Source: Candidatus Poseidoniales archaeon (GTDB lineage: Archaea > Thermoplasmatota > Poseidoniia > Poseidoniales > Poseidoniaceae). Taken from it: a DNA stretch of 45,917 bases. The notes under the pieces are model-generated. The model worked only from the letters and a program-made list of their open reading frames with translations. It ran no database searches and was not told the DNA's origin. Each line of letters opens with the position of its first letter. Within the stretch, counting starts at the first letter, position 1. Of this stretch, positions 7,608 through 30,708 are shown piece by piece. Both the position numbers and the translations under genes were made by a program. The stretch lies in the NCBI GenBank assembly GCA_003602635.1, contig QQSJ01000061.1, forward strand, positions 1 to 45,917, read 5' to 3'.

Positions 7608-7846
7608 TGGACGCCGTCGACCTCGTCGGGTGGATCCTTGCGGCCATCTCGATTGCAGCTCTTGTGTGGATGGTGCGGTCGGCCGCGCTTCGCGACCAGG
7701 CCCTCGATGACCGAATTGCGGCCGGTGATCTGTCGCTGTTTGACGAAGGCAACCTCGACATCGAAGAGGTCGTTCGTGCTCCAGCCGGCTCAACGGTTCA
7801 ACCCGGTCGCTTGATGGAGCTTGGTCCACAGCCACCGTTCAGATGA
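7607..7846 (+). CDS. Small hypothetical single-TM protein
   Basis: TGATG coupling to the pyrF stop; N-terminal hydrophobic helix LVGWILAAISIAALVWMV. Confidence 0.6.
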   Translation: MDAVDLVGWILAAISIAALVWMVRSAALRDQALDDRIAAGDLSLFDEGNLDIEEVVRAPAGSTVQPGRLMELGPQPPFR

Positions 7847-8735
7847 CCAAAAGACCGGTTTGGTAGGCGTATCCAGCGCCACCTACCGCTGCAAGAACGA
7901 GCATCAGGAAGAAGCGGAGGCCCCACCTTCGACGCTTCTTCGGTGGCGAGGCCGCGCCGTTGATGATTTGCCTGAACTCATCAAACGATACCTTCGAATC
8001 TCCATCGGTGTCGCCAAGGTGGAGCATCTTCCTCACCTTCTCGTCCGTCACCTCCCCACTGTCCAAGCTCATCTTGTTGAGCGCAAACCTCAGTTCCTCG
8101 AGTTCAATGTAGCCCGACTTGTCCCTGTCGATCTCCGAGAAGACCACGCGCAGCTCGTCATCAGCAAATTCGGGCTCGGGCCCCTTCGCCTTTCCACCCT
8201 TTGCGAGCGGAATCAATTCCGCATCCTCGGCCACCGCGGGCAAGGGCGGTAACGGAAGATCAGGGAGCGGAAGGTCGGGGAGTGGTAGGTCCAGAGGGGG
8301 TGGCGTCCGGTCTGGGTAGAGCTCTTCGAGGTCTTCCAGCCCCGGTGCTGCGGGCACGGGTCCCTCAACGGCCGACCAAATGGCGTCAAGTGCACTGCGC
8401 GTCACCGGCTTCTCCAGCACCGCCACGGCACCGGCGCTGAAGCCTGCGTCCTTGGCGAGCGAAAGCATGCGGCGAGGCGCGACGAAGATGATGCGTTCGT
8501 CTCCCCCGTGCTCGCGCATTTCCAGCGCGGCGAGGTGGCCGTCCAGGGACGGAAGATCCAGAGCGAGCACGACCAATTCTGGGTCGAGGCGGATGTATTC
8601 GTCCACCGCCTCGTCGCCGTCTTCGCACACGTTGACGTCGAAACCGCGGCCTTGCAGCAGTTCTGTCATCCGCAGCACGTTCATCGGATTTGAGTCGACC
8701 AGCAGGACGGTCGGGGCGACGTCCGAGGCGGTCAT
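7839..8735 (-). CDS. Pseudo-receiver domain + Pro-rich linker + EF-hand pair + C-terminal TM anchor
   Basis: REC fold (VLLVDSN...DGDEAV...PELVVLALDLPSLDG...LEKPV); EF loops DRDKSGYIELEE and DTDGDSKVSFDE; tail PKKRRRWGLRFFLMLVLAAVGGAGYAY. Confidence 0.85.
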   Translation of the reverse strand: MTASDVAPTVLLVDSNPMNVLRMTELLQGRGFDVNVCEDGDEAVDEYIRLDPELVVLALDLPSLDGHLAALEMREHGGDERIIFVAPRRMLSLAKDAGFSAGAVAVLEKPVTRSALDAIWSAVEGPVPAAPGLEDLEELYPDRTPPPLDLPLPDLPLPDLPLPPLPAVAEDAELIPLAKGGKAKGPEPEFADDELRVVFSEIDRDKSGYIELEELRFALNKMSLDSGEVTDEKVRKMLHLGDTDGDSKVSFDEFRQIINGAASPPKKRRRWGLRFFLMLVLAAVGGAGYAYQTGLLVI

Positions 8736-11097: not shown

Positions 11098-11367
11098 TCA
11101 TTCTTCTTCCGTAGGTGCGACCGGGCCGCCTGCGGCAGCGATGGCCTCGCGGAAGTGGTGGAGCACGCTGGGCTCTTGGGAGGTGCGGGGATCGATCTCC
11201 GCAACAGAATCCAGGTGGATGGAGCGGCGGGTGACGTTGTGGCGGGATCCCATGATGGAGTACACGCGGTGCTCCGCATCGCCCGCATCAGCGGCGGGGA
11301 GGTCCATCGAGAACGCTTGACGTTGCTGGCCGAAAGGCGCGGTGCCCTTGACGCGGAAGGCCTTCAT
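11098..11367 (-). CDS. rpl18a: 50S ribosomal protein L18Ae/LX (eL20)
   Basis: MKAFRVKG...AEHRVYSIMGSRHNVTRRSIHLDSVAEI; GTTTAAG box 24 nt upstream of ATG 11367. Confidence 0.88.
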   Translation of the reverse strand: MKAFRVKGTAPFGQQRQAFSMDLPAADAGDAEHRVYSIMGSRHNVTRRSIHLDSVAEIDPRTSQEPSVLHHFREAIAAAGGPVAPTEEE

Positions 11368-11452
11368 GAGGCCCGCGACCGGCCGTTCCGTCTTAAACGC
11401 GGCGGCGTGGCATCGCCGGGGGGCTGATAGAGGCAGAGCGTGTGCTGAAGGC

Positions 11453-14374
11453 GTGCGCGCCGCTCTGATGATCGTCCTGCTCCTCGGCGCAGGGCTTGGT
11501 CCAATGGCTGCGCCCGCCCATGAATCGGGGCTGGTCGTGCTCGAAGTCGAGGAAGGCGTGTGGACCCAAGCCACATGGACGGCCTTGACGGAAGACGGGT
11601 GGTCTCTCCTCCGACTGGCCACATGGACGGAAGCCGTCGTTTGGCACGATGGGGCGAGAGCCCCGCCGGAGGGATTCCTCATGCGCGCCGTGCCGGTGCC
11701 TGACGTCGATGCCTTGGTGGTGGATCAGCCGGTCAGGCTGGTGTTTGAACCTCGTCTGCCCGCTGAGGCGGTCGAACGGTTGGTCGCGGCCGGTGGCCCA
11801 ACGACCGTGGAACCGAACATGCGTGGCGTTCAAACCGTCATGGTGCCCTTTCACCCCACCCAACAACACTGGCCTGGCCTGCAACAAATCGAACCCGTCC
11901 TCCACACCGAGTCCCGGAACGACCGAGGCGCTGGCTTGCTACAATCCGGATCACAAAGCGACTTCCCATTGTGGGCGCTTGGTTTCAACGGAAGCGGCGT
12001 GGTGCTGGCCACCGCCGACAGCGGACTGGACATGGATCACGCTTGTTTCCGACAGGGAACGGACGTGATTGGAACACCGGGGCCTGACCACAGAAAGGTG
12101 GTCTTGCTCAACACCACCCTCGATGACGGGGACACACCCGGTCACAGCGATTACCGCCATGGGACCCACACCGCCGGCACGCTCGGATGTGAGCCAGTGG
12201 ACTGGAACCGTTCCAACGCGCCCGGCGAAGGGGTTTCGTTGGCGCATGGTGCTCGCCTCGTCGTCGCCGACATCGTTGATGCCAGTGGGTGGTCTCCGCC
12301 TTCGTTCGACGCCCTGTTGTCGGAAGCTGCGCTGCAGGGAGCCGTCATTCACGCCCACTCATGGGGCGATGACACAACGGAATACACGGCCAGGAGTGAG
12401 GCGCTTGATCGGTGGTCGTTGGAACACCCTTGGACCCTGGCGTTCATTGCACCGGGCAACGGTGGACAGGTGCTTGAGCCTGCCAATGCCCTCAACGCGG
12501 TGGCGGTTGGAGCCACGACGGTGGGCACCCCTGACGAGCGGTGGGTCGGTTCGCCTGAAGGTCCGACGGTGTTTGGCACCGATGGCATTGGTCTCCTTGT
12601 GCCCGGAGCGCACATCGTCTCCGCGAAAGCCGACGGAGATCCGAACAGCATGAACGGGGATTGGCGGGGTTCCAGCGGCACGAGCATGGCGACGCCCATG
12701 GCGGCCGCTGCGGCCGGTGTGCTGCAACAGATGATCGAGGACGGCGTGCTGCACGGCGGCTCGCCCAGTGAAGCGACCCTCAACCTCACCGCACACGCCC
12801 CGATGTGGGCGAGCCCGGACCCTTCTGGCCTGGCTTGGGCGTCCGATGGATGGACGCCGTCGGGCCCCATGCTGCGCGCAGCCTTGTCGCTAAGCGCCGA
12901 ACCGCTTCCCCCGGAACACGCCAACGGAGGAGCGGGGCCGGGAGGATTGAGCAACGCTCACGACGGATGGGGTCAACCACGGCTGGAGCGGTTGCTCGCG
13001 CCCACCCAGATCGATGGAGCGTGGGATTTGACGCCGCATGTGTTCCTTCACGACGCGTACCGGCTTCATGCCGGAACGCCACAAAGCCTGCTTGGCGAAC
13101 GTCTGAACCTCACTGGGAACACCGATCGTCTCGGTGAAGCCCCATGGAACGGTTCCGGGGCCGTGGGGCCTTTCCTCGCCGAAGGGGACCGTTACCAACG
13201 GACGTTTGACCTCCGACCGGGAGAGGACCTCGACGTGCGGTTGGCCTACCCTTCGCTGGGCGGTCAAGCCGTGGATGACCTCGTGCTCTACGTTCACTTG
13301 GACGACGGTCATACAGCGGCGTCGGGGATTGATTTCGGAGGGGCTTCCGTGTTGAGTGACGACGTCCCATCGCCTGAACGGTCAAACGAAACGCTGCGTG
13401 GAATCCACATCAACTCGGACGATCTTGGCAACGCCACGTCGGCGACGGTGGAGGTTGTCGCTCGCCACGTGGTGCCAGGAAACAGCCCGGGTGCTTTGGG
13501 TGCAGACGGGGATCGCATCGGTTTCGCACTGGCCGTCATGGGGGTGGAACGGGCGCCGCCGGGGCCACAAGACCTCGATGAAGACGGTGTCCTTGACCCA
13601 CTTGACGCGTGTGCGTCAGAACCCGCAGGGGCCGTCGATCTCGACGGCGACGGATGCCCTGACGACCGTGACATGGACGGCATCGACGACGTGGATGATG
13701 CGTGCCCGGACGAAGATGCTCGCCCGGCGGACGGCAACGCCGACGGATGCCTCGACGATTCTGATGCGGACGGCGTCGCCGATCACCTGGATGCTTGCCC
13801 GGCCACCACGGCTGACCCTGCATGGCCCACGAGGGCCGATGGATGCAGGCCCGCGGATGTTGTGCCCGTGGTGGAAGCATCGTTCCCCCAACCCAATCTT
13901 GCTCCTGACCAAGCGTTGGAAGTGGTGGTGATGGTGCGTGACGCCGACGGTGACGGGGGCGAACTTCTCGCCTCGTTGGTCGTTGACGGCGTGCCCCTCC
14001 CGGGCAGCCACATGCACGCCAACGGCACAGGACACCACATCCTCGTCTGGAACGCGACGGTATGGGCCGTGCCTTGGGTCGAGAACGGTTCGCTGGTGGA
14101 CGTGATCTTGACCTTCGAAACGTCGAACGCATCGCCGGAAGCGACGCTTGAGGTGGCCATGCCTGTGGGGGGCGTGCGTACCGTCGTCCTCCACCCTCCG
14201 CCTTCTGCCCCAAGCGAGGATATGTCGCCGTCCTTCCGACCGGCTCTCTTGGCTGGGCTGCTTTTGCTGCTTCTTGTGGCGTTGATTCGGTGGCGTGAGC
14301 CGCCTGAACGGGACCCTGCGGGACCACGCGACCCCTTTGTCACCTCGTCGAGGCCTCGAAAATCAGAAGAGTGA
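11453..14374 (+). CDS. Membrane-anchored S8 subtilisin-like serine protease with thrombospondin type-3-like Ca-binding repeats
   Basis: Signal peptide after GTG 11453; triad ADSGLD / HGTHTAG / GTSMATP; DxDxDG repeats; C-terminal TM LLAGLLLLLLVALI. Confidence 0.9.
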   Translation: MRAALMIVLLLGAGLGPMAAPAHESGLVVLEVEEGVWTQATWTALTEDGWSLLRLATWTEAVVWHDGARAPPEGFLMRAVPVPDVDALVVDQPVRLVFEPRLPAEAVERLVAAGGPTTVEPNMRGVQTVMVPFHPTQQHWPGLQQIEPVLHTESRNDRGAGLLQSGSQSDFPLWALGFNGSGVVLATADSGLDMDHACFRQGTDVIGTPGPDHRKVVLLNTTLDDGDTPGHSDYRHGTHTAGTLGCEPVDWNRSNAPGEGVSLAHGARLVVADIVDASGWSPPSFDALLSEAALQGAVIHAHSWGDDTTEYTARSEALDRWSLEHPWTLAFIAPGNGGQVLEPANALNAVAVGATTVGTPDERWVGSPEGPTVFGTDGIGLLVPGAHIVSAKADGDPNSMNGDWRGSSGTSMATPMAAAAAGVLQQMIEDGVLHGGSPSEATLNLTAHAPMWASPDPSGLAWASDGWTPSGPMLRAALSLSAEPLPPEHANGGAGPGGLSNAHDGWGQPRLERLLAPTQIDGAWDLTPHVFLHDAYRLHAGTPQSLLGERLNLTGNTDRLGEAPWNGSGAVGPFLAEGDRYQRTFDLRPGEDLDVRLAYPSLGGQAVDDLVLYVHLDDGHTAASGIDFGGASVLSDDVPSPERSNETLRGIHINSDDLGNATSATVEVVARHVVPGNSPGALGADGDRIGFALAVMGVERAPPGPQDLDEDGVLDPLDACASEPAGAVDLDGDGCPDDRDMDGIDDVDDACPDEDARPADGNADGCLDDSDADGVADHLDACPATTADPAWPTRADGCRPADVVPVVEASFPQPNLAPDQALEVVVMVRDADGDGGELLASLVVDGVPLPGSHMHANGTGHHILVWNATVWAVPWVENGSLVDVILTFETSNASPEATLEVAMPVGGVRTVVLHPPPSAPSEDMSPSFRPALLAGLLLLLLVALIRWREPPERDPAGPRDPFVTSSRPRKSEE
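13571..13850 (+). repeat. TSP3-like DxDxDG...D.CP peptide repeats in the S8 protease
   Basis: DLDEDGVLDPLDAC, DLDGDGCPDDRDMDGIDDVDDACP, DGNADGCLDDSDADGVADHLDACP. Confidence 0.8.
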
Positions 14375-14443
14375 GTCCACCTTTGTCAGGGTGAACCTTG
14401 AAGTCCGGACGCGCAGTCGAGGAACCATAGGACGCTGGATACA

Positions 14444-15448
14444 ATGAGCGAACGACTGTACATCGGCATTGACCTCGGCACGTACCAATCGACCATCGCA
14501 TCGAGCTCCGGCACCATCCACACTGTGGAAACCGTCGTCGGCCGACCCAAGGACCCGGTGGCCCGAAACATGCTCAAGCGTGACGTGCTTTTTGGCGCTG
14601 ATGCGCTCAAGCACAAGATGTCCTGCGACCTGTACCGGCCGATGGCCAAGGGCGTGACGCAAGACGATGAAGCCAACCTGGCGGCCGCGAAGGCCTTCAT
14701 GGGCCACCTCATCGAAACGATGGACCCCGAAGAGTACGACGAAGTCGTTGGCGTGGTGTGCTCGCCCTCCCACGTTTCCTTCACGGACAAGTCCAACCTT
14801 GTCGCCACCCTCCGTGGCCAAGTGAACGCCATCATGGTCGTGAGCGAACCCTTCGCCACCGCCTACGGAATCGGTGAATTCCACGGCACCATCGTCGTGG
14901 ACATTGGTGCAGGCACCACCGACATCGCTCGCCTCTACGGGACCTTCCCCAACGACGACGACCAGATCAGCATCGCCGAAGCCGGCGACTGGCTCGACCT
15001 CCACCTCATGGAACTGATTCGCAAGAAGTTCACCGGCGCTCAAGTCACGAAGGACATGGTTCGCCGCTGGAAGGAAGAGTCGTCGTACGTGGGCGGCGAA
15101 GCCCGTGAAGTCCTCGTCTCCCTCTCCGTCGAAGGCAAGCAACAGCGTGTCGACATCGGCGACCTCATCGGTGAAGCATGCGAAGCGCTTGTGCCCCTCC
15201 TCGGAAACGGCATCAAGAAGACGGTCGCTGGCGCCGACCCGGAATACCAGGAAACGTTCCGCCAGAACATCATCCTCTCTGGTGGCGGCTCCCTCATCGA
15301 GGGCATCGCTGACCGCTTGGCTGCGGAGATCGCCGACATCGGAAACGTCGCTGTTCGCTGCGTCGAAGAGCCGATTGACAAGGTCGCCGTTGGCGCTGTG
15401 GCGCTCGCGCAGGACATGCCCGAAGACATGTTCACCTCCATCGAGTGA
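14444..15448 (+). CDS. Actin-fold ATPase, MamK-like subfamily of the MreB/actin superfamily
   Basis: IGIDLGT (phosphate 1), VVGRPKD, VVSEPF, IVVDIGAGTTDI (phosphate 2), GTFPNDDDQI, PEYQETFRQNIILSGGGSLI (adenosine). These motifs follow MamK more closely than MreB. Confidence 0.88.
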   Translation: MSERLYIGIDLGTYQSTIASSSGTIHTVETVVGRPKDPVARNMLKRDVLFGADALKHKMSCDLYRPMAKGVTQDDEANLAAAKAFMGHLIETMDPEEYDEVVGVVCSPSHVSFTDKSNLVATLRGQVNAIMVVSEPFATAYGIGEFHGTIVVDIGAGTTDIARLYGTFPNDDDQISIAEAGDWLDLHLMELIRKKFTGAQVTKDMVRRWKEESSYVGGEAREVLVSLSVEGKQQRVDIGDLIGEACEALVPLLGNGIKKTVAGADPEYQETFRQNIILSGGGSLIEGIADRLAAEIADIGNVAVRCVEEPIDKVAVGAVALAQDMPEDMFTSIE

Positions 15449-15537
15449 CGGCGCCGCCGTTTTGCTCGGACAACGCAGGCCCTCAGGGGCTCGATTGAAG
15501 GAAGGTTCAAGTGCGGTTCGACGGGCTTCACGCTCAC

Positions 15538-16788
15538 ATGTCGTCCAGCGAAGCCGTTTCGACTCGTGGGACCCCAAGTGCTCGTGAGGAGCGTGCTGCC
15601 CTCGAAGGCATGCTCCGTGGGTATCCCGTGGAGCAATTGGTCGAGGAGGTCATGACCGCCTGGGAGGAACTTGCGGAACGAAACGACGAGGTCGTTGAAG
15701 CCAAGCAGCGCCTTCGGGTCATGGAACTTGATTTGGCAGAGCGGGCCGACGAGGTGGCTCCTGAAGTCAAGCGACTGAAGGAAGTCGAACAAGTCGCCAG
15801 CGAAGCGCAGGCCCGCATCGTCCACCTGGAGCGTTTGCTTGAGGACGCGAGAGAGGAAGCGGCCATGCATGCGGCCTCCGCCTCGGCCGAGGAACGAGCA
15901 AGGCTCACCGCTGAAGTGGAACGGCTTGGCGCCTTGTGCGAGGACCAAGACGAAGTCATCGGTGAAATGGAAGAGCGGGTGGAACGGATGGTCGTCGCAC
16001 TGGAGCGGGCGGCTGACGCGGGCTTGACCTCGGTCACCGCAGACGAAGTTCGACGTTTGAAGCAACTCAACGAAGAAGCGCAAAGCGCCCTGGCCGGCGA
16101 ACAAGCCAGCGTTCGCAGCCTCGAAGAGGAACGGCAGCGCCTTCGTGACATCGCCGACCGGCTCCGTGGATTGATCGACGTCCGAGACCAACGGCTCGCC
16201 GAACTCGAGGATCAGGTCGAGCGCGTCATGAGTGGCCCCAAGTCCATCTCAGCTGAACACGATTACCTCGTTGAGCAAATCGAGGACCTCAAGCGCCGTC
16301 TCCTCGAACGAAACCGCGAGTACGAATCGCTCCGACGCCGTGAGCGGCGCCTCCACAACGACGTGTTTGAGCGCGACGAGCGGTTGCAGCAGATGACGCT
16401 CACCATGACCGACCTCGAAGCGGCCTTGCAGGACCGTACCGCAGAACTGCGGGACCTCGAAACGCGCGCCAGCGACGCAGAAGACGAAGTGGCACGCCAG
16501 CGACGTGGTGAGCGCACCCGTGAAGTCGTGGGCAAGGCCTTCTCCGACACGCTCGGACTCGTTCGAGGTCACGATCAGCGTGAAGCCGCGCGTGCTGCGT
16601 ATGCTGACGCTCCAGACGTTGAGCGGCGCATCAGCAGCCCGACCGTCGAAGACATGCAGGACCTCGCTCAGGGCGGCCAACTCGATCTTGACGTGGACGT
16701 CGAAGCCGTTCCCGTCGGTGAAGCGCTTGACGAGGATCGTCCTCCCGCCCCCGGCGGCAAAGGCGACCCTGTGGTTTACGACGAGTGA
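15538..16788 (+). CDS. Long segmented coiled-coil protein with acidic/Pro tail
   Basis: About 300 aa of E/R/L-rich heptads broken by short linkers; no Walker motifs and no TM; GTTCAAG 26 nt upstream of ATG 15538. Confidence 0.8.
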   Translation: MSSSEAVSTRGTPSAREERAALEGMLRGYPVEQLVEEVMTAWEELAERNDEVVEAKQRLRVMELDLAERADEVAPEVKRLKEVEQVASEAQARIVHLERLLEDAREEAAMHAASASAEERARLTAEVERLGALCEDQDEVIGEMEERVERMVVALERAADAGLTSVTADEVRRLKQLNEEAQSALAGEQASVRSLEEERQRLRDIADRLRGLIDVRDQRLAELEDQVERVMSGPKSISAEHDYLVEQIEDLKRRLLERNREYESLRRRERRLHNDVFERDERLQQMTLTMTDLEAALQDRTAELRDLETRASDAEDEVARQRRGERTREVVGKAFSDTLGLVRGHDQREAARAAYADAPDVERRISSPTVEDMQDLAQGGQLDLDVDVEAVPVGEALDEDRPPAPGGKGDPVVYDE

Positions 16789-17594
16789 GCGGTCAGTCCG
16801 CTCAGCACATCGTCCAGTGCGTGGATCAATTCCGTCGTGTCCGCCGTCTCTTCGATCAACGTCCCGGTCACGACCCAGTCTGCTCCCGCGGCAACGGCCG
16901 TAGCGGCCGCGGCACCGTCGCGCAGTCCGCCACCGACCATCAAGGTCAGTCCGTCCACGTCACGTGCAGCGCGAATGAGCTCGGGGCTGACGGGAGCATC
17001 GGCCCCCGAGCCAGCCTCCAGATAGAGCAACTGGAATCCATACATGGAGGCCGTCAAGGCATTGGCTTTGACGCGGTCCGCGTCGCCGGCCTCCACGAGG
17101 TCCGCTTGGCCGACGCGGCCCACTTCGCCTCCCGGGGCCATCACGAGGTAGCCGGTCGGGACGGTGTCGATTCCAAACGCGGCGATGTGGGGGGCTCCGC
17201 GGACTTGTTCTGTGATGAGGAATCGAGGGTCTGTGCTGTTCATGAGCATCATGAACAGGATGCCGTCGGCGGCCGGTGAAAGGGCGTGAGCGCCTCCGGG
17301 AAAGAGGACGACCGGAACGCGCCACGTGTCTTCGTTCCCCTCGGGATTTTGCGAGGCGGCCATGGCCGCAAGGTCGAGGGCGTCCTGAATGGCGGTGCAC
17401 GTGGCGTGCACAACCTCGTTTGGCGTGTCGGTCGAACCACCCACAAGGATGAGTTGTGTGCCGCGTTCGACGGCAACAAGGGCCCTTCGTGCAGCGATTT
17501 CGACGTCCTGCTTGCCTGGGTCGATCAACAGGGCGTGGCGGGGCCCGACCTTTGCCGTCACGTGAGCCAACACATCGCCGTGCTCTGAACGCAT
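16776..17594 (-). CDS. Geranylgeranylglyceryl phosphate synthase (GGGPS/PcrB family)
   Basis: HALLIDPGK, ILVGGST, PVVLFPG, LLYLEAGSGA, VGGGLRD, GADWVVTGT. Start set at ATG 17594. Confidence 0.92.
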   Translation of the reverse strand: MRSEHGDVLAHVTAKVGPRHALLIDPGKQDVEIAARRALVAVERGTQLILVGGSTDTPNEVVHATCTAIQDALDLAAMAASQNPEGNEDTWRVPVVLFPGGAHALSPAADGILFMMLMNSTDPRFLITEQVRGAPHIAAFGIDTVPTGYLVMAPGGEVGRVGQADLVEAGDADRVKANALTASMYGFQLLYLEAGSGADAPVSPELIRAARDVDGLTLMVGGGLRDGAAAATAVAAGADWVVTGTLIEETADTTELIHALDDVLSGLTAHSS

Positions 17595-17680
17595 CTCGAC
17601 CGGTTGAACCACGGGACAGAGGACGATAGCCGTTGCCGACGCAACCACCACGATGAAACCCAATGGCGCGAGCGGCCACC

Positions 17681-26520: not shown

Positions 26521-29500
26521 TCAAAACTCTGGGAAATATTTCCGCGTATAGGCCAGGGCGTCTTCTTCGCTGTAGCCTTGTTCGATCAAGTCCGCATGGT
26601 ACGCGAGAGCCTCGGGGTCATGCACAGAAGCATGGTCCAGCGAATCGGGGGATGCATCGACGTTCGCTTCAACGGCGGAGGCCGTCCCGGTCTCATGGTC
26701 GTCCTCACGCTCCTTGGCCTGTTGGGCGGCCACACGCAACGTCAGCATGAGTGAGCCGACCCCCAACAGCACCATCGCTCCGACGATGAGTACGAATGAG
26801 AACGCGTCCCCTGACGTGCCTTTGGCTGAATCATCGAGGCCGTCTTCCTCCTCATCGTCCAAGACGGGTGGCGCGAACGAGTAGGTCCCATCGTGAAGCA
26901 CCGTAGCGGGCCCTGATGGATGGGACGCAGTCATGCTCCATGTCACGTTCCAGGCCACCGAGGAACGGTGGGCTTCGTTGTACTTGATGAAGGCAGGATT
27001 GGCTTCCCAGATGGTCCACTCCATTCCAGGTTGGACGGTGATGGCCCATCCGTCCTCGGTGCCGTCAACGGCGGTCTGCCAGGTCAACGTCACGGGCCGG
27101 AACCCGTTGTTGATGATCTGGCACATGATCACGTCCGTGGCGTTTCCGTCTGGGACGGCGTCCAAACAACTTCCTCCCAAGCCGAGGCTCTGGAGTTCGG
27201 TCAAGTCGAGCAGGGTGACGTTGGTCAAGCAGCCTGAATCGTTCGTATGGCAAAGGGTGACCGAAAGGTTGGCTTCCATCGCACCGGCCATGAGAACGTC
27301 GTTGGCGACGGTCAGGAGGTCGAACGTCTCGTTGCCCTGTCCTTCGGCCACCTCGGCTTCGTGGAAGAGCGTCCCGTTCAGGGCGATCGACAAGAAGGCG
27401 GTGGGCTGATCGGTCTGGAAGTCCCATCCGACCGACACTTCCGTTGGGGTTGTACGGGTGGCCAGAAGGCGTCCAAAGACGCCAACGGGTTCCGCGACGA
27501 GGAAGTCGGCCTCCACCGGTAGGGCCGAGTTCCCTACCTCGTCAAGCACCTCGAGTCGAACGCGGTGCATCCCCTCAACCAACGCGCTCGCCGAGAGGAT
27601 CAGTTCGAGGTTCGTCGCCGGACCCATTCCGGTGCCTTTCGAATCGATTTCGCCGCCGTTTGGTCCAAACACCGTGATCGAGGCGATGGCGTGCTCATCG
27701 GGGCTCAGGGACCACGAGCCTGTGACCGTCACGTCTTCGCCAAGCAGCGCGGCAGGGGGGGTTGAGATGGAGAGGTCGGCCGGGGCCGTTCTGTCCACCA
27801 ATTGAAGGGTGGCGTCATGGCCGGGGCCGAGTCCGTCGTCGTCGGATGCTCCCGCACCGGTGGATTCTGAGAGGTGGACCTCGATCGTCCAAGCACCAAG
27901 GCCTTCGCGGCCCGGGGCCCACGCGGCAAGGTAGGCGCCCTCGGCCGAGTCCCACGGCGCATCCAGCGTGGTGGTCACGCCTTCACGGACGAGATCCATC
28001 GATGCGGTGAGGTCGCTGCGGTTTCCTGCATCGGTCACGCGGAACGTGAAATTCGGGGCATCGCCCTCCCAAGTTCCGGCAAGTTCGGCCCCTTCGAGCA
28101 ACGCGGTGCCCTCGTCCGCAGACACCTGGAGGGTGGCCACTTCGGGCATGCGATCCAGCACTGGGAAGGTGTACGCCGAGGGCGTGGACATGGCGTTGCC
28201 GCGCTCGTCGGTCATCCGGACGCTGACGCTCATGGTGCCGGGCGTGTCACGGTGGTCGGCCGTGTCGATGGAGGCCATCCAACCTCCAATGCCAGCGTTC
28301 CAAGACGTTTCGACGCGATCGGCTTCCGCACCGACGTTCGTTCCGAACCACAGATCGACCGTGGCCGTGGTTTCGTCAATGAGGTCCTCGACGACGATGA
28401 CGGTGCGTTCTCCAAGGCGAACGTCCGGTTCGTCGACGCCCCCGTAACGGTGAATGACACGATCGAGCCGCGGGGGTTCGTTGTCGAGCCACGACAAGGA
28501 AGGGTCGGAGAGAGAGATCTGCACGCCCGTGTCTGTCCCTTGCCCGGTGGCGTAGAGCACGTCATGGGATGACGACAAACCGCAGGTGGTGCTGAGGTAC
28601 ACGCTGCCGCACGTTTGGACGATGCTCGCGTTGGTTGCTGCAGCGAGGGAGAGTGGGGTTTCCATGGACCATGGAACGGCCACGTGCTCAACCGTCAAGC
28701 CAAGGTCACTCAGCGCCGTGTTGGACGAGAGGCTGAGGGTCACGTCGAGCCAAGCGCGCCCATCGCTTGCCGTGCGAGGCGTGGCGGTGGTCAACATCGA
28801 GCCAAGGTGCGCTTGCGACAGCACGAGGTCCCCGCCAGGGTTCACGTCGGTGTCGGCGTCGAACAGAGGTCCGAAGGTTGGGTGGCTCACCGTAAGATCC
28901 GCGTCCGTCAGTGTCCAACCGAGCCACAGGTGCCCGTCGTCGGCAGGCGTTGCATCGGCAGGGAGGCTGAACTCAAGCGTTGCATTGGTGATGTCCAAAC
29001 TTGCTGAAGAAGACGAGAGGCTCATGTCGGTTGGCGCTGAGATGGGTTGGTTGTCGACGGAGAGTGAAAGCCCGTCCACCGTTGTCCATCGGCCCCAATC
29101 AAAGGTCACGTCGACAACGGACGGAGAGGCCGTGCCGTTTCGGGTCATGGCGTACGCCATCTGAACGAAAGTGGCACGGCCCAAGGAGGCGTTTTGAACG
29201 GGCGCTGTGGTCCATGCAGACCACGATGGAGCTGACGTTCCCGGCGCTGACATGGAGGTCCGGACGAGGACGTCCAGCGTGCTGTTGGCCGGAACCGTGG
29301 TGCTGTGGTTCATCCAAAGCGGCCCACGGGCTTCTGGGAACGCGATGGCGTCGCCGATGAACGCCCCGCTCGGAGCTTGGAAGGAGCCCGTGGCATATCC
29401 TGACCATGTGCCGGCGGTCACGGTTCCAGCGGACCCAACGTCGCCGTCGAATCCGTCCACTCCCGTGCCGTACTTCAGGCCCTTCAAGCCGCCGCCGCCT

Positions 29501-30627
29501 GCGGTGGCGCTGATCAAACCAAGAGAGGTGCTGCCACCAGAAGTGGTCCGTGTTTGGACGTACCCGCCACCGCCGCCACCGCCGCCGTCGCCGCCGTCGT
29601 ACATGCCGAATCCTATGCCGCTTTGCTGCCCGTCTTCGCCGTCACCACCGGCACCGCCGTTGGCTGAAATGACGCCGGTCGAGCCGACGGAGAGGGTGTT
29701 GACCTGCACGTCAATGCTCCCGCCTGAACCGCCGCCGCCACCTGAACCGCCTGCGCCCGTGCCACCGTTCGGTGAAACACCTGCATCGCCACCTGCGCCG
29801 TTGGCGAGCAGGGAGCCGTTGACCACGAGGGACCCTGCGCGGATGGTGAGAAGGCCCCCTCCATGTCCGCCGTATGCATCGCCGTAGTTGCTGCTGCCGA
29901 ACACGTCGCCGCCGGGGCTTCCCATTTCTGTGCCGTTCCCGTACGTCGTGCCGCCTGTGCCCCCGTTCGTTCCTCCGCCAGCGCCACCGGCGCCGTTGTG
30001 GCCGCCACCGCCGCCGCCGTCGCTTCGACCGTTGGACGGGGTGGTGACCGAAGAGCCCGCGCCCGAACCGGAGCTTGCCGCCCCCTCGACCGAGATTGAC
30101 GTGCCTGTTTCAAGGATGATTTCACGTGCGTAGATGGTGAGGTTGGTGCCCGTGACAGTGCCGCACACACCGCTGTTGCAGATCAGGTGGAGCGTGTCAA
30201 AGGATTTCGTTCCGGTCCATTGAACGGCGGTAGAGACCTGTTGGCTTGTGTTTCCTGCTTCTGGAGGACCTCCCAGCGTGCTGGTCAAGACCAGTCCAGA
30301 TGGGGTGATGCTCGTGTTGGTGGGTGTCCCGGTGATGGTCCCTGAGGTGAAACTGTAACTCGCTTGTTCAGCGAGGGCGGCGGGGGTCAGCGTCAGATTG
30401 ACCGTACCAGAGGTCATTTCCGCTCCGGGGACCGTGTCGAAACGAACCGACCCTCCGCAACCTGCACAGAGCACGTCGTCGTGCTGAGTGCTGCCGTCCT
30501 GGAAGGAGGTTTCTGTGGCCGTCCATGAGGTTGCAGGAGCGCGTGGGGCCTCCTCCAGGAGGCTTGGGGCCACCGGAAGAACAAGGGCCGTGAACATGAG
30601 CAAGACCAACGCCACTGCGGCTCTCAT
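26521..30627 (-). CDS. Large secreted, membrane-anchored surface protein with Gly-rich domain
   Basis: Signal peptide MRAAVALVLLMFTALVLP; poly-Gly GGxGG region; T/S/D-rich beta-sandwich-like repeats; many NxS/T sequons; C-terminal TM and acidic tail. Confidence 0.8.
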   Translation of the reverse strand: MRAAVALVLLMFTALVLPVAPSLLEEAPRAPATSWTATETSFQDGSTQHDDVLCAGCGGSVRFDTVPGAEMTSGTVNLTLTPAALAEQASYSFTSGTITGTPTNTSITPSGLVLTSTLGGPPEAGNTSQQVSTAVQWTGTKSFDTLHLICNSGVCGTVTGTNLTIYAREIILETGTSISVEGAASSGSGAGSSVTTPSNGRSDGGGGGGHNGAGGAGGGTNGGTGGTTYGNGTEMGSPGGDVFGSSNYGDAYGGHGGGLLTIRAGSLVVNGSLLANGAGGDAGVSPNGGTGAGGSGGGGGSGGSIDVQVNTLSVGSTGVISANGGAGGDGEDGQQSGIGFGMYDGGDGGGGGGGGYVQTRTTSGGSTSLGLISATAGGGGLKGLKYGTGVDGFDGDVGSAGTVTAGTWSGYATGSFQAPSGAFIGDAIAFPEARGPLWMNHSTTVPANSTLDVLVRTSMSAPGTSAPSWSAWTTAPVQNASLGRATFVQMAYAMTRNGTASPSVVDVTFDWGRWTTVDGLSLSVDNQPISAPTDMSLSSSSASLDITNATLEFSLPADATPADDGHLWLGWTLTDADLTVSHPTFGPLFDADTDVNPGGDLVLSQAHLGSMLTTATPRTASDGRAWLDVTLSLSSNTALSDLGLTVEHVAVPWSMETPLSLAAATNASIVQTCGSVYLSTTCGLSSSHDVLYATGQGTDTGVQISLSDPSLSWLDNEPPRLDRVIHRYGGVDEPDVRLGERTVIVVEDLIDETTATVDLWFGTNVGAEADRVETSWNAGIGGWMASIDTADHRDTPGTMSVSVRMTDERGNAMSTPSAYTFPVLDRMPEVATLQVSADEGTALLEGAELAGTWEGDAPNFTFRVTDAGNRSDLTASMDLVREGVTTTLDAPWDSAEGAYLAAWAPGREGLGAWTIEVHLSESTGAGASDDDGLGPGHDATLQLVDRTAPADLSISTPPAALLGEDVTVTGSWSLSPDEHAIASITVFGPNGGEIDSKGTGMGPATNLELILSASALVEGMHRVRLEVLDEVGNSALPVEADFLVAEPVGVFGRLLATRTTPTEVSVGWDFQTDQPTAFLSIALNGTLFHEAEVAEGQGNETFDLLTVANDVLMAGAMEANLSVTLCHTNDSGCLTNVTLLDLTELQSLGLGGSCLDAVPDGNATDVIMCQIINNGFRPVTLTWQTAVDGTEDGWAITVQPGMEWTIWEANPAFIKYNEAHRSSVAWNVTWSMTASHPSGPATVLHDGTYSFAPPVLDDEEEDGLDDSAKGTSGDAFSFVLIVGAMVLLGVGSLMLTLRVAAQQAKEREDDHETGTASAVEANVDASPDSLDHASVHDPEALAYHADLIEQGYSEEDALAYTRKYFPEF

Positions 30628-30708
30628 GGCCGGCCGTCGAAGGCTTCGGTTTTCACAAACGTGGTGATTTTGTTTCACAGGCGGGTGATGCTGCACTGGC
30701 CGGCCCAC

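Follow-up and report, generated by a model that had tools for sequence, protein, structure and literature searches.

Does an uncultured planktonic archaeon build a cytoskeleton around a MamK-type actin, and is the coiled-coil protein encoded directly behind that actin its partner or only its neighbour? This question is raised by a 45,917-nucleotide stretch of DNA (hereafter the window; contig QQSJ01000061.1 of assembly GCA_003602635.1, G+C 63%) from a Poseidoniales archaeon, as the organism was also judged from the source names of related proteins. An original prediction had placed here, on the forward strand, a MamK-like actin followed by an intermediate-filament-like coiled-coil protein. Both open reading frames (ORFs) were recovered at the predicted places: the actin ORF at 14444-15448(+), encoding 334 aa, and, in the same direction, the coiled-coil ORF at 15511(GTG)/15538(ATG)-16788(+), encoding 425 or 416 aa depending on the start. 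The reading that we favour, with about even confidence, is that the separately promoted actin and acidic rod together most likely make up a single cytoskeletal module in a Poseidoniaceae (Marine Group II) archaeon. The Poseidoniales are uncultured, very abundant planktonic archaea of whose cell biology almost nothing is known, and no description of an actin/rod system in this order was found in the open-access papers and preprints searched. The genome to which the window belongs is 69% complete, and all genomes compared below are metagenome-derived assemblies. The two genes, their upstream boxes and the segments of the rod are as follows.

14390..14403, forward strand: promoter-like box GTGAACCTTGAAG before the actin gene, holding CTTGAAG (14397-14403); conserved as AASSTTSAA
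14444..15448, forward strand: MamK-family actin-like ATPase, 334 aa (paralogue P1), from hidden Markov models (HMMs), PDB search and an AlphaFold2 (AF2) model
15500..15511, forward strand: promoter-like box GGAAGGTTCAAG before the rod gene, with GTG 15511 inside the box; conserved as AASSTTSAA
15538..16788, forward strand: acidic coiled-coil rod protein, 416 aa; no Pfam family, three long helices in the AF2 model, 39-sequence alignment
15538..16017, forward strand: head and coil 1A, residues 1-160; a module kept as an ORF of ~145-160 aa in actin-less relatives
16018..16038, forward strand: linker L1, AGLTSVT, residues 161-167; helix break in the AF2 model, with A161, G162, L163, T164 and S165 invariant
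16039..16230, forward strand: coil 1B, residues 168-231, from the AF2 model and heptad analysis
16234..16380, forward strand: most conserved block of the alignment, residues 233-281, comprising linker L2 and the start of coil 2
16246..16608, forward strand: coil 2, residues 237-357, from the AF2 model
16609..16785, forward strand: acidic, Pro-rich tail, residues 358-416; net charge -12, predicted local distance difference test (pLDDT) 47-75, with P405, G406 and G407 invariant

Family of the actin-like ATPase

Among NCBIfam models, the top match of P1 was MamK (NF040964; 331 bits, E 7.4e-99), at a score under the curated cut-off of 400 bits. The BeeR model gave 208.5 bits (cut-off 530), the MreB models TIGR00904 and PRK13927 gave 63.2 bits (cut-off 365.75) and 77.1 bits (cut-off 293), and the salactin models NF053533 and PF25229 (Pfam Salactin) gave 25.8 bits (cut-off 400) and 21.7 bits (cut-off 27.1). 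P1 does pass the broad Pfam family MreB_Mbl (79 bits against a 27-bit cut-off), and this is why relatives carry the public name 'rod shape-determining protein MreB'. A sequence search of solved structures was headed by MamK (5ljw, E 4.7e-59), followed by BeeR (1e-35) and MreB (3e-13); eukaryotic and archaeal actin structures matched far more weakly (E about 1e-8), and ParM was absent among the listed matches. The AF2 model of P1 (pLDDT 91.2) overlays the MamK filament subunit 5ljv with template-modelling (TM) scores of 0.94/0.96 and a root-mean-square deviation of 1.5 Å over 325 columns, compared with TM 0.88 for BeeR and about 0.80-0.85 for MreB.

The motifs on which the original prediction had relied (VVGRPKD, VVSEPF, IVVDIGAGTTDI, GTFPNDDDQI and PEYQETFRQNIILSGGGS) are all present in the translation. 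In an alignment of 57 sequences the phosphate-1, phosphate-2 and adenosine motifs are conserved, with G8, G12, D153, G155 and G280 invariant and E135 kept in at least 90%. In the alignment from the PDB search, E135 and D153 fall on E143 and D161 of MamK, which we take to be the ATPase residues whose mutation stops turnover. Orthologues of P1 are 67-89% identical across the order, and a divergent second copy in family f2 is 61-62% identical.

To place P1 more widely, we used an exhaustive profile-free search with the actin, which returned 1053 cluster representatives at E <= 1e-3 and 120 at E <= 1e-30. When 77 full-length representatives were scanned against NCBIfam, MamK was the best model for 64 and BeeR for 13. 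Public names include 'magnetosome protein MamK' of an uncultured bacterium (P0174), a MamK-like protein of Paramagnetospirillum magneticum (P0199) and a candidate division KSB1 bacterium (P0129); P0174, which bears the magnetosome label, is an FtsZ-MamK fusion. Two trees were built, a quick one of 103 rows rooted on E. coli MreB and a careful one of 63 rows, for which 40 of the 103 had been dropped, namely long-branched or near-duplicate representatives plus some Poseidoniales rows. The root of both is the single long MreB branch, which separates MreB from all MamK-like sequences by about 2.45 substitutions per site. The quick tree recovered P1 and a second Poseidoniales paralogue, P2, as clades (SH-aLRT 100 each) and as sisters (98), with long bacterial proteins that carry a C-terminal MamK-like domain beside the two (SH-aLRT 95). 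In the careful tree P1+P2 received UFBoot 78 / SH-aLRT 98, and the individual clades were well supported (P1 100/100, P2 100/100, BeeR 100/99, the long bacterial forms 98/99), as was the group with the magnetosome proteins (98/94); the backbone between clades is not resolved there, and the sister position of the KSB1-type clade is without support.

The P1 clade is confined to Poseidoniales, and the magnetosome-labelled P0174 and P0199 lie in the other clade just mentioned (98/94). Forcing P1 and magnetosome MamK into an exclusive clade cost 111.8 log-likelihood units (p-AU 1.35e-06, for a group named after the tree was seen). P1 as a BeeR was likewise rejected, given its score against the BeeR cut-off, its separate clade and its N-terminus: the first strand of the model begins at residue 4, with three residues before it and nothing like BeeR's disordered extension of 30-50 aa. 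Judged from its sequence, P1 is a MamK-family actin in the broad sense, and neither an orthologue of magnetosome MamK nor an MreB, a BeeR or a salactin. The proposal that the actin is MamK-like rather than MreB-like is thus borne out by HMMs, solved-structure search, fold and trees, and it does not group with ordinary MreB; its kinship with MamK holds for the broad family and stops short of the magnetosome clade and the 400-bit cut-off. Salactin, which the prediction had named as a related archaeal actin, is a relative, if only a distant one.

The host appears non-magnetotactic, as had been supposed: MamP was found in 0/5 relatives' genomes, and no mam genes lie near the actin among the window's ORFs by Pfam scan. 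No mreC/mreD is nearby either. A search for MamI gave no match, control genomes included, and thus carries no information. A check of Poseidoniales genomes found no canonical MreB. Two FtsZ genes and a third tubulin-like gene occur in 4/5 genomes checked, actin-bearing and actin-less alike, and the window's incomplete genome has one FtsZ-type match plus the third tubulin-like gene.

The long bacterial forms (P0125-P0139, 523-1232 aa) form a clade with an architecture of its own: a short, conserved helical segment at the N-terminus leads into a long stretch of low complexity, and the C-terminal part is a MamK-like domain that shares 40-45% identity with the window actin. One member bears the name candidate division KSB1. 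Homology between the N-terminal extensions of these KSB1-type proteins and the rod was considered and rejected (hhalign probability 0.6%).

The rod protein and its distribution

The AF2 model of the rod protein (pLDDT 81.6) consists of a short head, helices at residues 31-160, 168-231 and 237-357, with breaks only at AGLTSVT (161-167) and SGPKS (232-236), and a poorly ordered tail. In 48% of 28-residue windows the heptad signal lies above the 95th percentile obtained with shuffled sequences, and the net charge is -40 overall. The head, the coils, the acidic, Pro-rich tail and these two linkers agree with what had been read from the translation; the two further linkers proposed there, APE and ASASA, lie inside continuous predicted helix. 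Mean column identity across 39 sequences from three families is 73%, unusually high for a coiled coil, and conservation between genera is 62-66%, against 62% for PcrB, the product of a neighbouring gene. The same alignment has 34 invariant columns, 33 of them within residues 233-281, where the pattern is GP.S.SAEHDYLVEQ..KRRL..RNREY...RRRER.LH..VF.RDE.

No Pfam family matched the rod at E <= 0.01, Rod_CreS and Filament included, and NCBIfam returned only weak matches to coiled-coil regions of SMC proteins (E 5e-07 to 4e-04), far under their cut-offs. Neither database revealed a Walker motif, an ATPase domain or a DNA-binding domain, and a Foldseek search of the model against the PDB gave 0 matches at E <= 0.001. 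Relatives of the rod number 1381, of which the best 120 are all close orthologues; those with source names come from Poseidoniales or from unclassified euryarchaeotal metagenome-assembled genomes, and among these best 120 of 1381 the protein would, by its sequence, be found only in Poseidoniales. Fused or longer forms (729-2080 aa) were not found at E <= 1e-5, which is weak evidence. In a language-model search (Atlas), the nearest named family was that of crescentin-rod clusters (0.92, 147 shared features), a lead only, as 147 features lie below the level typical of true family members. The term 'intermediate-filament-like' therefore describes a resemblance of the modelled architecture (head, segmented rod, tail), and it is in that sense that it can be kept from the original prediction.

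The distribution of the pair was followed in 61 genomes of the order, a sample drawn from a larger group, with an actin threshold of E <= 1e-20. The rod gene lies directly 3′ of the actin on the same strand at 29/29 other f1 loci and 9/9 f2/f3 loci, and at 39/40 loci overall, so that the synteny that had been expected across Poseidoniales was found. The spacer between the two measures 74-717 nt (median 93), the longest being that of G049 (contig C29). In G001 (contig C23; 83% complete, 300 contigs), the rod gene starts ~8.4 kb away from the actin, at a contig end. P1 is present in 39/61 genomes, 38 of which have a full-length rod; in the 39th, G001, the rod is this contig-end fragment. A further genome, G017, has P2 contigs only. 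In the remaining 21/61 (genera g9-g12, g14 and one genome of g15) no MamK-like gene was detected at that threshold; these genomes measure 1.3-1.6 Mb, are 86-97% complete, and none has a full-length rod.

What is left of the rod in the actin-less genomes is its N-terminal part. In 12/21 a short ORF that aligns to rod residues ~1-156 persists beside pcrB, and at 9/9 small-genome loci examined (L042-L050) such an ORF, 143-161 aa long, stops immediately ahead of the AGLTS linker. Coil 1B, coil 2 and the tail thus occur only in actin-bearing genomes, and the N-terminal third is kept across the order. Persistence of this stub suggests that the N-terminal rod module is a self-standing unit with an actin-independent role. 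Since the stub has lost the actin gene on one side of it and the 3′ two thirds of the rod gene on the other, two or more separate deletions are needed there, and P2 and its neighbour, at another locus, are likewise gone from the actin-less genomes. On a tree of PcrB, eight actin-less loci group together (SH-aLRT 80), so the losses may all belong to one lineage. By this phylogenetic argument the loss may count as one event with several steps and not as repeated independent co-loss. The module is dispensable in streamlined lineages of 1.3-1.6 Mb. A link to archaella was tried as an explanation of the pattern, and a strict association was rejected: archaellin (PF01917) and actin disagree in 4/16 genera, with actin but no archaellin in g7, g8 and g16 and archaellin but no actin in g14. 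It follows from this mismatch that motility is not the common denominator within Poseidoniales.

The two genes have separate promoter-like boxes. The leader element CTTGAAG noted in the original prediction lies 41 nt 5′ of the actin ATG and is part of a box that is conserved throughout the order, and the box proposed for the rod gene (15505-15511) is covered by the conserved one at 15500-15511. The motif AASSTTSAA stands 50-64 nt 5′ of the actin ATG in 29/39 loci and 35-44 nt 5′ of the rod ATG in 19/39. Across the window's genome, 14/25 GAASSTTSAA sites precede an ATG-initiated ORF of at least 100 aa at a distance of 21-57 nt, compared with 45/189 for eight permuted control patterns. Because the motif precedes many genes genome-wide, no such site is specific to the actin or the rod, and the box as a shared regulatory site of the two was rejected; from its sequence it looks like a general promoter (TATA/BRE-like) element of a high-GC archaeon. 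GTG 15511 falls inside the box, which favours ATG 15538 as the start of the rod (416 aa), and the spacing from box to ATG would imply a leaderless or near-leaderless rod mRNA from that start.

Codon use also differs between the two genes. At 0.56, the share of C-ending codons (C3) in the actin gene is greater than in any other of 21 window genes (0.33 to 0.50), in keeping with the strong C-ending bias noted in the prediction; the rod gene, at 0.39, is unremarkable. Two RNA libraries from two studies (X3, X4) hold contigs that are 90-95% alike to the actin gene. They cover the actin gene and reach ~80 nt into the rod gene, with none past 15616; one X4 contig crosses the actin-rod spacer to 15551, and another starts at 14427, which is 17 nt upstream of the actin ATG and ~24 nt past the box, where a transcript start would be expected. 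Such contigs cannot prove transcription, absence, level, strand or transcript ends (libraries X1 and X2 may even be DNA), and the missing cover of the rod gene is accordingly uninformative. Together with the top C3 bias, the RNA contigs give a hint of actin expression.

One module or two neighbours

If the actin and the rod form one cytoskeletal module, P1 would assemble into ATP-dependent filaments in the manner of MamK and BeeR, and the rod would dimerise into a coiled coil roughly 50 nm in length. Its C-terminal two thirds would bind, bundle or regulate the actin filament, and its N-terminal module (head and coil 1A) would tie the filament to another component of the cell. In that case the rod would serve as an adaptor or scaffold specific to this lineage, by analogy with the role of MamJ, of the Mad coiled-coil proteins or of the arcadins for their respective actins; candidate jobs for the pair are shape, polarity or the positioning of some structure.

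The comparison with MamK and MamJ is the closest, since P1 is nearest to MamK by HMM, solved-structure sequence search and fold. In the parts of PMC10653835 that deal with them, the MamK partners MamJ (426 aa, acidic) and Mg-1g50 (strain MV-1) are described as lineage-specific proteins without sequence relationship to each other, which are encoded next to mamK and required for full function. By that description the Poseidoniales rod resembles MamJ in being adjacent, acidic, lineage-specific and of similar length (about 420 aa, against 426 aa). P1 differs from MamK in scoring 331 bits against a 400-bit cut-off, in falling outside the magnetosome clade and in having no magnetosome genes near it, and the rod differs from MamJ in being a long coiled coil encoded downstream, whereas MamJ is a repeat-rich acidic protein encoded upstream. 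In Desulfovibrio magneticus RS-1, the coiled-coil proteins Mad20, Mad23, Mad25 and Mad26 act with the actin-like MamK and Mad28, according to portions of PMC12748827; as described there, this too is a MamK-type actin with coiled-coil proteins that organise a cell structure. The Mad proteins organise bacterial magnetosome chains, whereas the Poseidoniales pair has no known cargo.

Other systems are more distant. BeeR of Verrucomicrobiota, the second-best PDB and fold match of P1, with a clade of its own, is presented in sections of PMC11929497 as a three-stranded, tubular, MamK-related actin of non-magnetotactic organisms with a disordered N-terminal extension. Crenactin, which belongs to the eukaryote-like actin branch that P1 matches weakly, is a further case. 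One arcadin is a coiled-coil protein. In Pyrobaculum, crenactin is encoded beside lineage-specific arcadins, one of which regulates the filament, as stated in part of PMC5173319. Salactin and volactin, haloarchaeal actins that excerpts of PMC10746226 and PMC10869688 report as related to MamK/MreB, are different subfamilies from P1, and crescentin and other bacterial intermediate-filament-like proteins have the head, segmented rod and tail in common with the rod and lack a counterpart in it at the level of Pfam Rod_CreS. Against this background, the actin and rod are a variant of the theme of an actin plus its cognate partner, a pairing that is likely but unproven. It would extend to a non-magnetotactic archaeon the rule from magnetotactic bacteria that each MamK-type actin has its own lineage-specific neighbour. 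The locus offers candidates that can be expressed, a MamK-family actin labelled 'MreB' or 'hypothetical' in public records and a conserved candidate partner without a known family.

Several observations weigh against a functional module. Both flanks of the pair are conserved with it, the flanking genes being as follows.

11342..14374, forward strand: S8 subtilase, 1010 aa (Pfam Peptidase_S8); conserved upstream neighbour, context outside the claimed module
16776..17663, reverse strand: PcrB-family gene (GGGP synthase type; Pfam PcrB); conserved convergent downstream neighbour, context

The S8 gene lies 5′ of the actin in 8/9 f2/f3 loci examined (the contig of the ninth does not extend far enough), and the PcrB gene is adjacent in 8/9 f2/f3 loci and 8/9 small-genome loci. 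As the whole S8-actin-rod-PcrB block is syntenic across the order, adjacency of actin and rod alone is weak evidence and may reflect slow genome rearrangement within one order. The joint loss, in turn, may be a single historical event in a lineage shedding many genes. Separate boxes and different codon bias mean that the two genes are not an obligate operon, and the gap of ~8.4 kb in G001 and the 717-nt spacer in G049 depart from close adjacency. Persistence of the N-terminal module without an actin gives part of the rod a role independent of it. Finally, MamK-like genes of other Thermoplasmatota have different neighbours (hhalign 0.1%), and no actin-rod fusion was found.

Several of these observations feed the strongest competing explanation, which we rate as possible though distinctly less probable than a module: the two genes would be neighbours only, the actin using other partners and the rod serving a purpose of its own, such as chromosome organisation or division in the manner of a generic SMC-like rod. 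The conserved block, the separate boxes, the differing codon bias, the surviving stub and a joint loss that fits one lineage are all consistent with it, as are the weak SMC coiled-coil matches in NCBIfam and the name 'chromosome segregation ATPase' that JGI gives to some orthologues. That name is unfounded, as the rod has no Walker motif or ATPase domain. The distribution also speaks against this explanation: the same 39 genomes hold the actin and the rod (38 full-length, one fragment), 0/21 actin-less genomes have the C-terminal two thirds, and it took separate deletions, one on each side of the stub, to remove the actin and to truncate the rod.

We consider it unlikely that the rod is itself a nucleotide-independent, self-assembling filament of the intermediate filament or crescentin kind, shaping the cell alongside the actin and not acting as its adaptor. 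The head, three-segment rod and tail, the invariant linkers, the conserved block at a segment boundary and a degree of conservation like that of the neighbouring enzyme (62-66% vs 62% for PcrB) would all suit such a protein, and the crescentin-rod clusters nearest in the language-model search are a lead in this direction. Opposed to it are the missing Pfam Rod_CreS/Filament match, the lack of any solved-structure match at E <= 0.001, a feature count (147) below the level of true members and an ordinary codon use unlike that of an abundant structural protein.

A system for DNA segregation after the manner of ParM and ParR, in which the actin would push DNA and the rod would be the centromere-binding adaptor, is very improbable. 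The ParMRC layout is an actin gene followed by an adaptor gene, and the gene order here matches it. The rod has no DNA-binding domain, MamK and not ParM heads the PDB matches, and, as the original prediction had remarked, iterated centromere-like repeats are absent around the actin and rod, where only short matches of 2-3 copies within coding DNA were found; there are no iterons. The setting is moreover chromosomal and housekeeping, vertically conserved across the order, with FtsY, prefoldin and then the S8 subtilase upstream of the actin and, on the 3′ side of the rod gene, the convergent PcrB gene and an ABC exporter, then PurQ/PurL, a ZIP transporter, NikR, UvrA, RluA and MoeA (all by Pfam). 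Least probable of all is an ordinary MreB guiding wall synthesis, for which the MreB_Mbl score (79 bits over the 27-bit cut-off) and the source names speak, against MreB-model scores of 63 and 77 bits where 366 and 293 are required, a MamK score four times higher, the long MreB branch and the absence of mreC/mreD nearby.

A second actin pair and other loci

The original prediction did not include a second actin paralogue with its own partner gene. In the window's genome, P2 lies on contig C114 (L051:6120-8252, reverse strand, together with its neighbour); it has 352 aa, is 46% identical to P1 and scores 357 bits with the MamK model, under the 400-bit cut-off. Directly 5′ of P2 on the same strand is a gene for a protein of ~350 aa that has zinc-ribbon-like Cys pairs at each end and belongs to no Pfam family, and the two are adjacent in 5/5 other genomes examined. 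The zinc-ribbon-like protein was matched in 40/61 genomes, genus by genus the same as the actins, with coordinates that abut P2 where compared. Each Poseidoniales actin paralogue thus has its own lineage-specific neighbour. In the complete, single-contig genome G003 (C1:1175447-1176441), P2 matches in two adjoining pieces, residues 3-151 and 153-333, which suggests an in-frame stop or a sequencing error.

A bolder version of the module, which we think rather improbable as a whole, would have larger-genome Poseidoniales carry a four-gene cytoskeleton: two MamK-derived actins, each with a partner (the intermediate-filament-like acidic rod for P1 and the double zinc-ribbon protein for P2), which would build an unseen internal structure or set shape and polarity, the rod being a true archaeal intermediate-filament-like protein that co-assembles with actin. 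If so, such a cytoskeleton would belong to archaea that rank among the most abundant in the surface ocean. The presence/absence split, in which genomes of 1.8-2.2 Mb have both actin pairs and those of 1.3-1.6 Mb have neither, predicts a visible difference between cells.

Across Thermoplasmatota, MamK-family matches at E <= 1e-30 occur in 57/301 genomes: in 42/42 other members of f1, 7/21 of f3, 0/8 of the sister family f4 and seven larger-genome members of other families. Four of the seven matches outside the order exceed the MamK cut-off. At three loci (L052:2700-3992, L053:94-1368 and L054:1-1329), a MamK-family gene above the cut-off is followed by a conserved charged protein of 425-443 aa with a globular N-terminal domain of ~250 aa, a charged, variable C-terminal part and no Pfam family. 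This neighbour was rejected as a homologue of the rod (hhalign probability 0.1%). In family f19 (L057:531-3698 and L059:321-3993), a MamK-like gene stands amid CheA/CheW, CheD and CheC (Pfam) and is followed in these chemotaxis clusters by a conserved protein of 318-341 aa of no known family; the context hints at a role of the f19 MamK-like protein in positioning chemosensory or motility machinery.

Elsewhere in the window, a 1395-aa ORF without a Pfam match at E <= 1e-5 lies between NikR and UvrA (26521-30708, reverse strand), and the sole match of an Rfam scan is one tRNA. On the upstream side, the ORF at 7839-8735 (reverse strand) encodes a response-regulator receiver domain fused to paired EF-hand calcium-binding motifs (Pfam).

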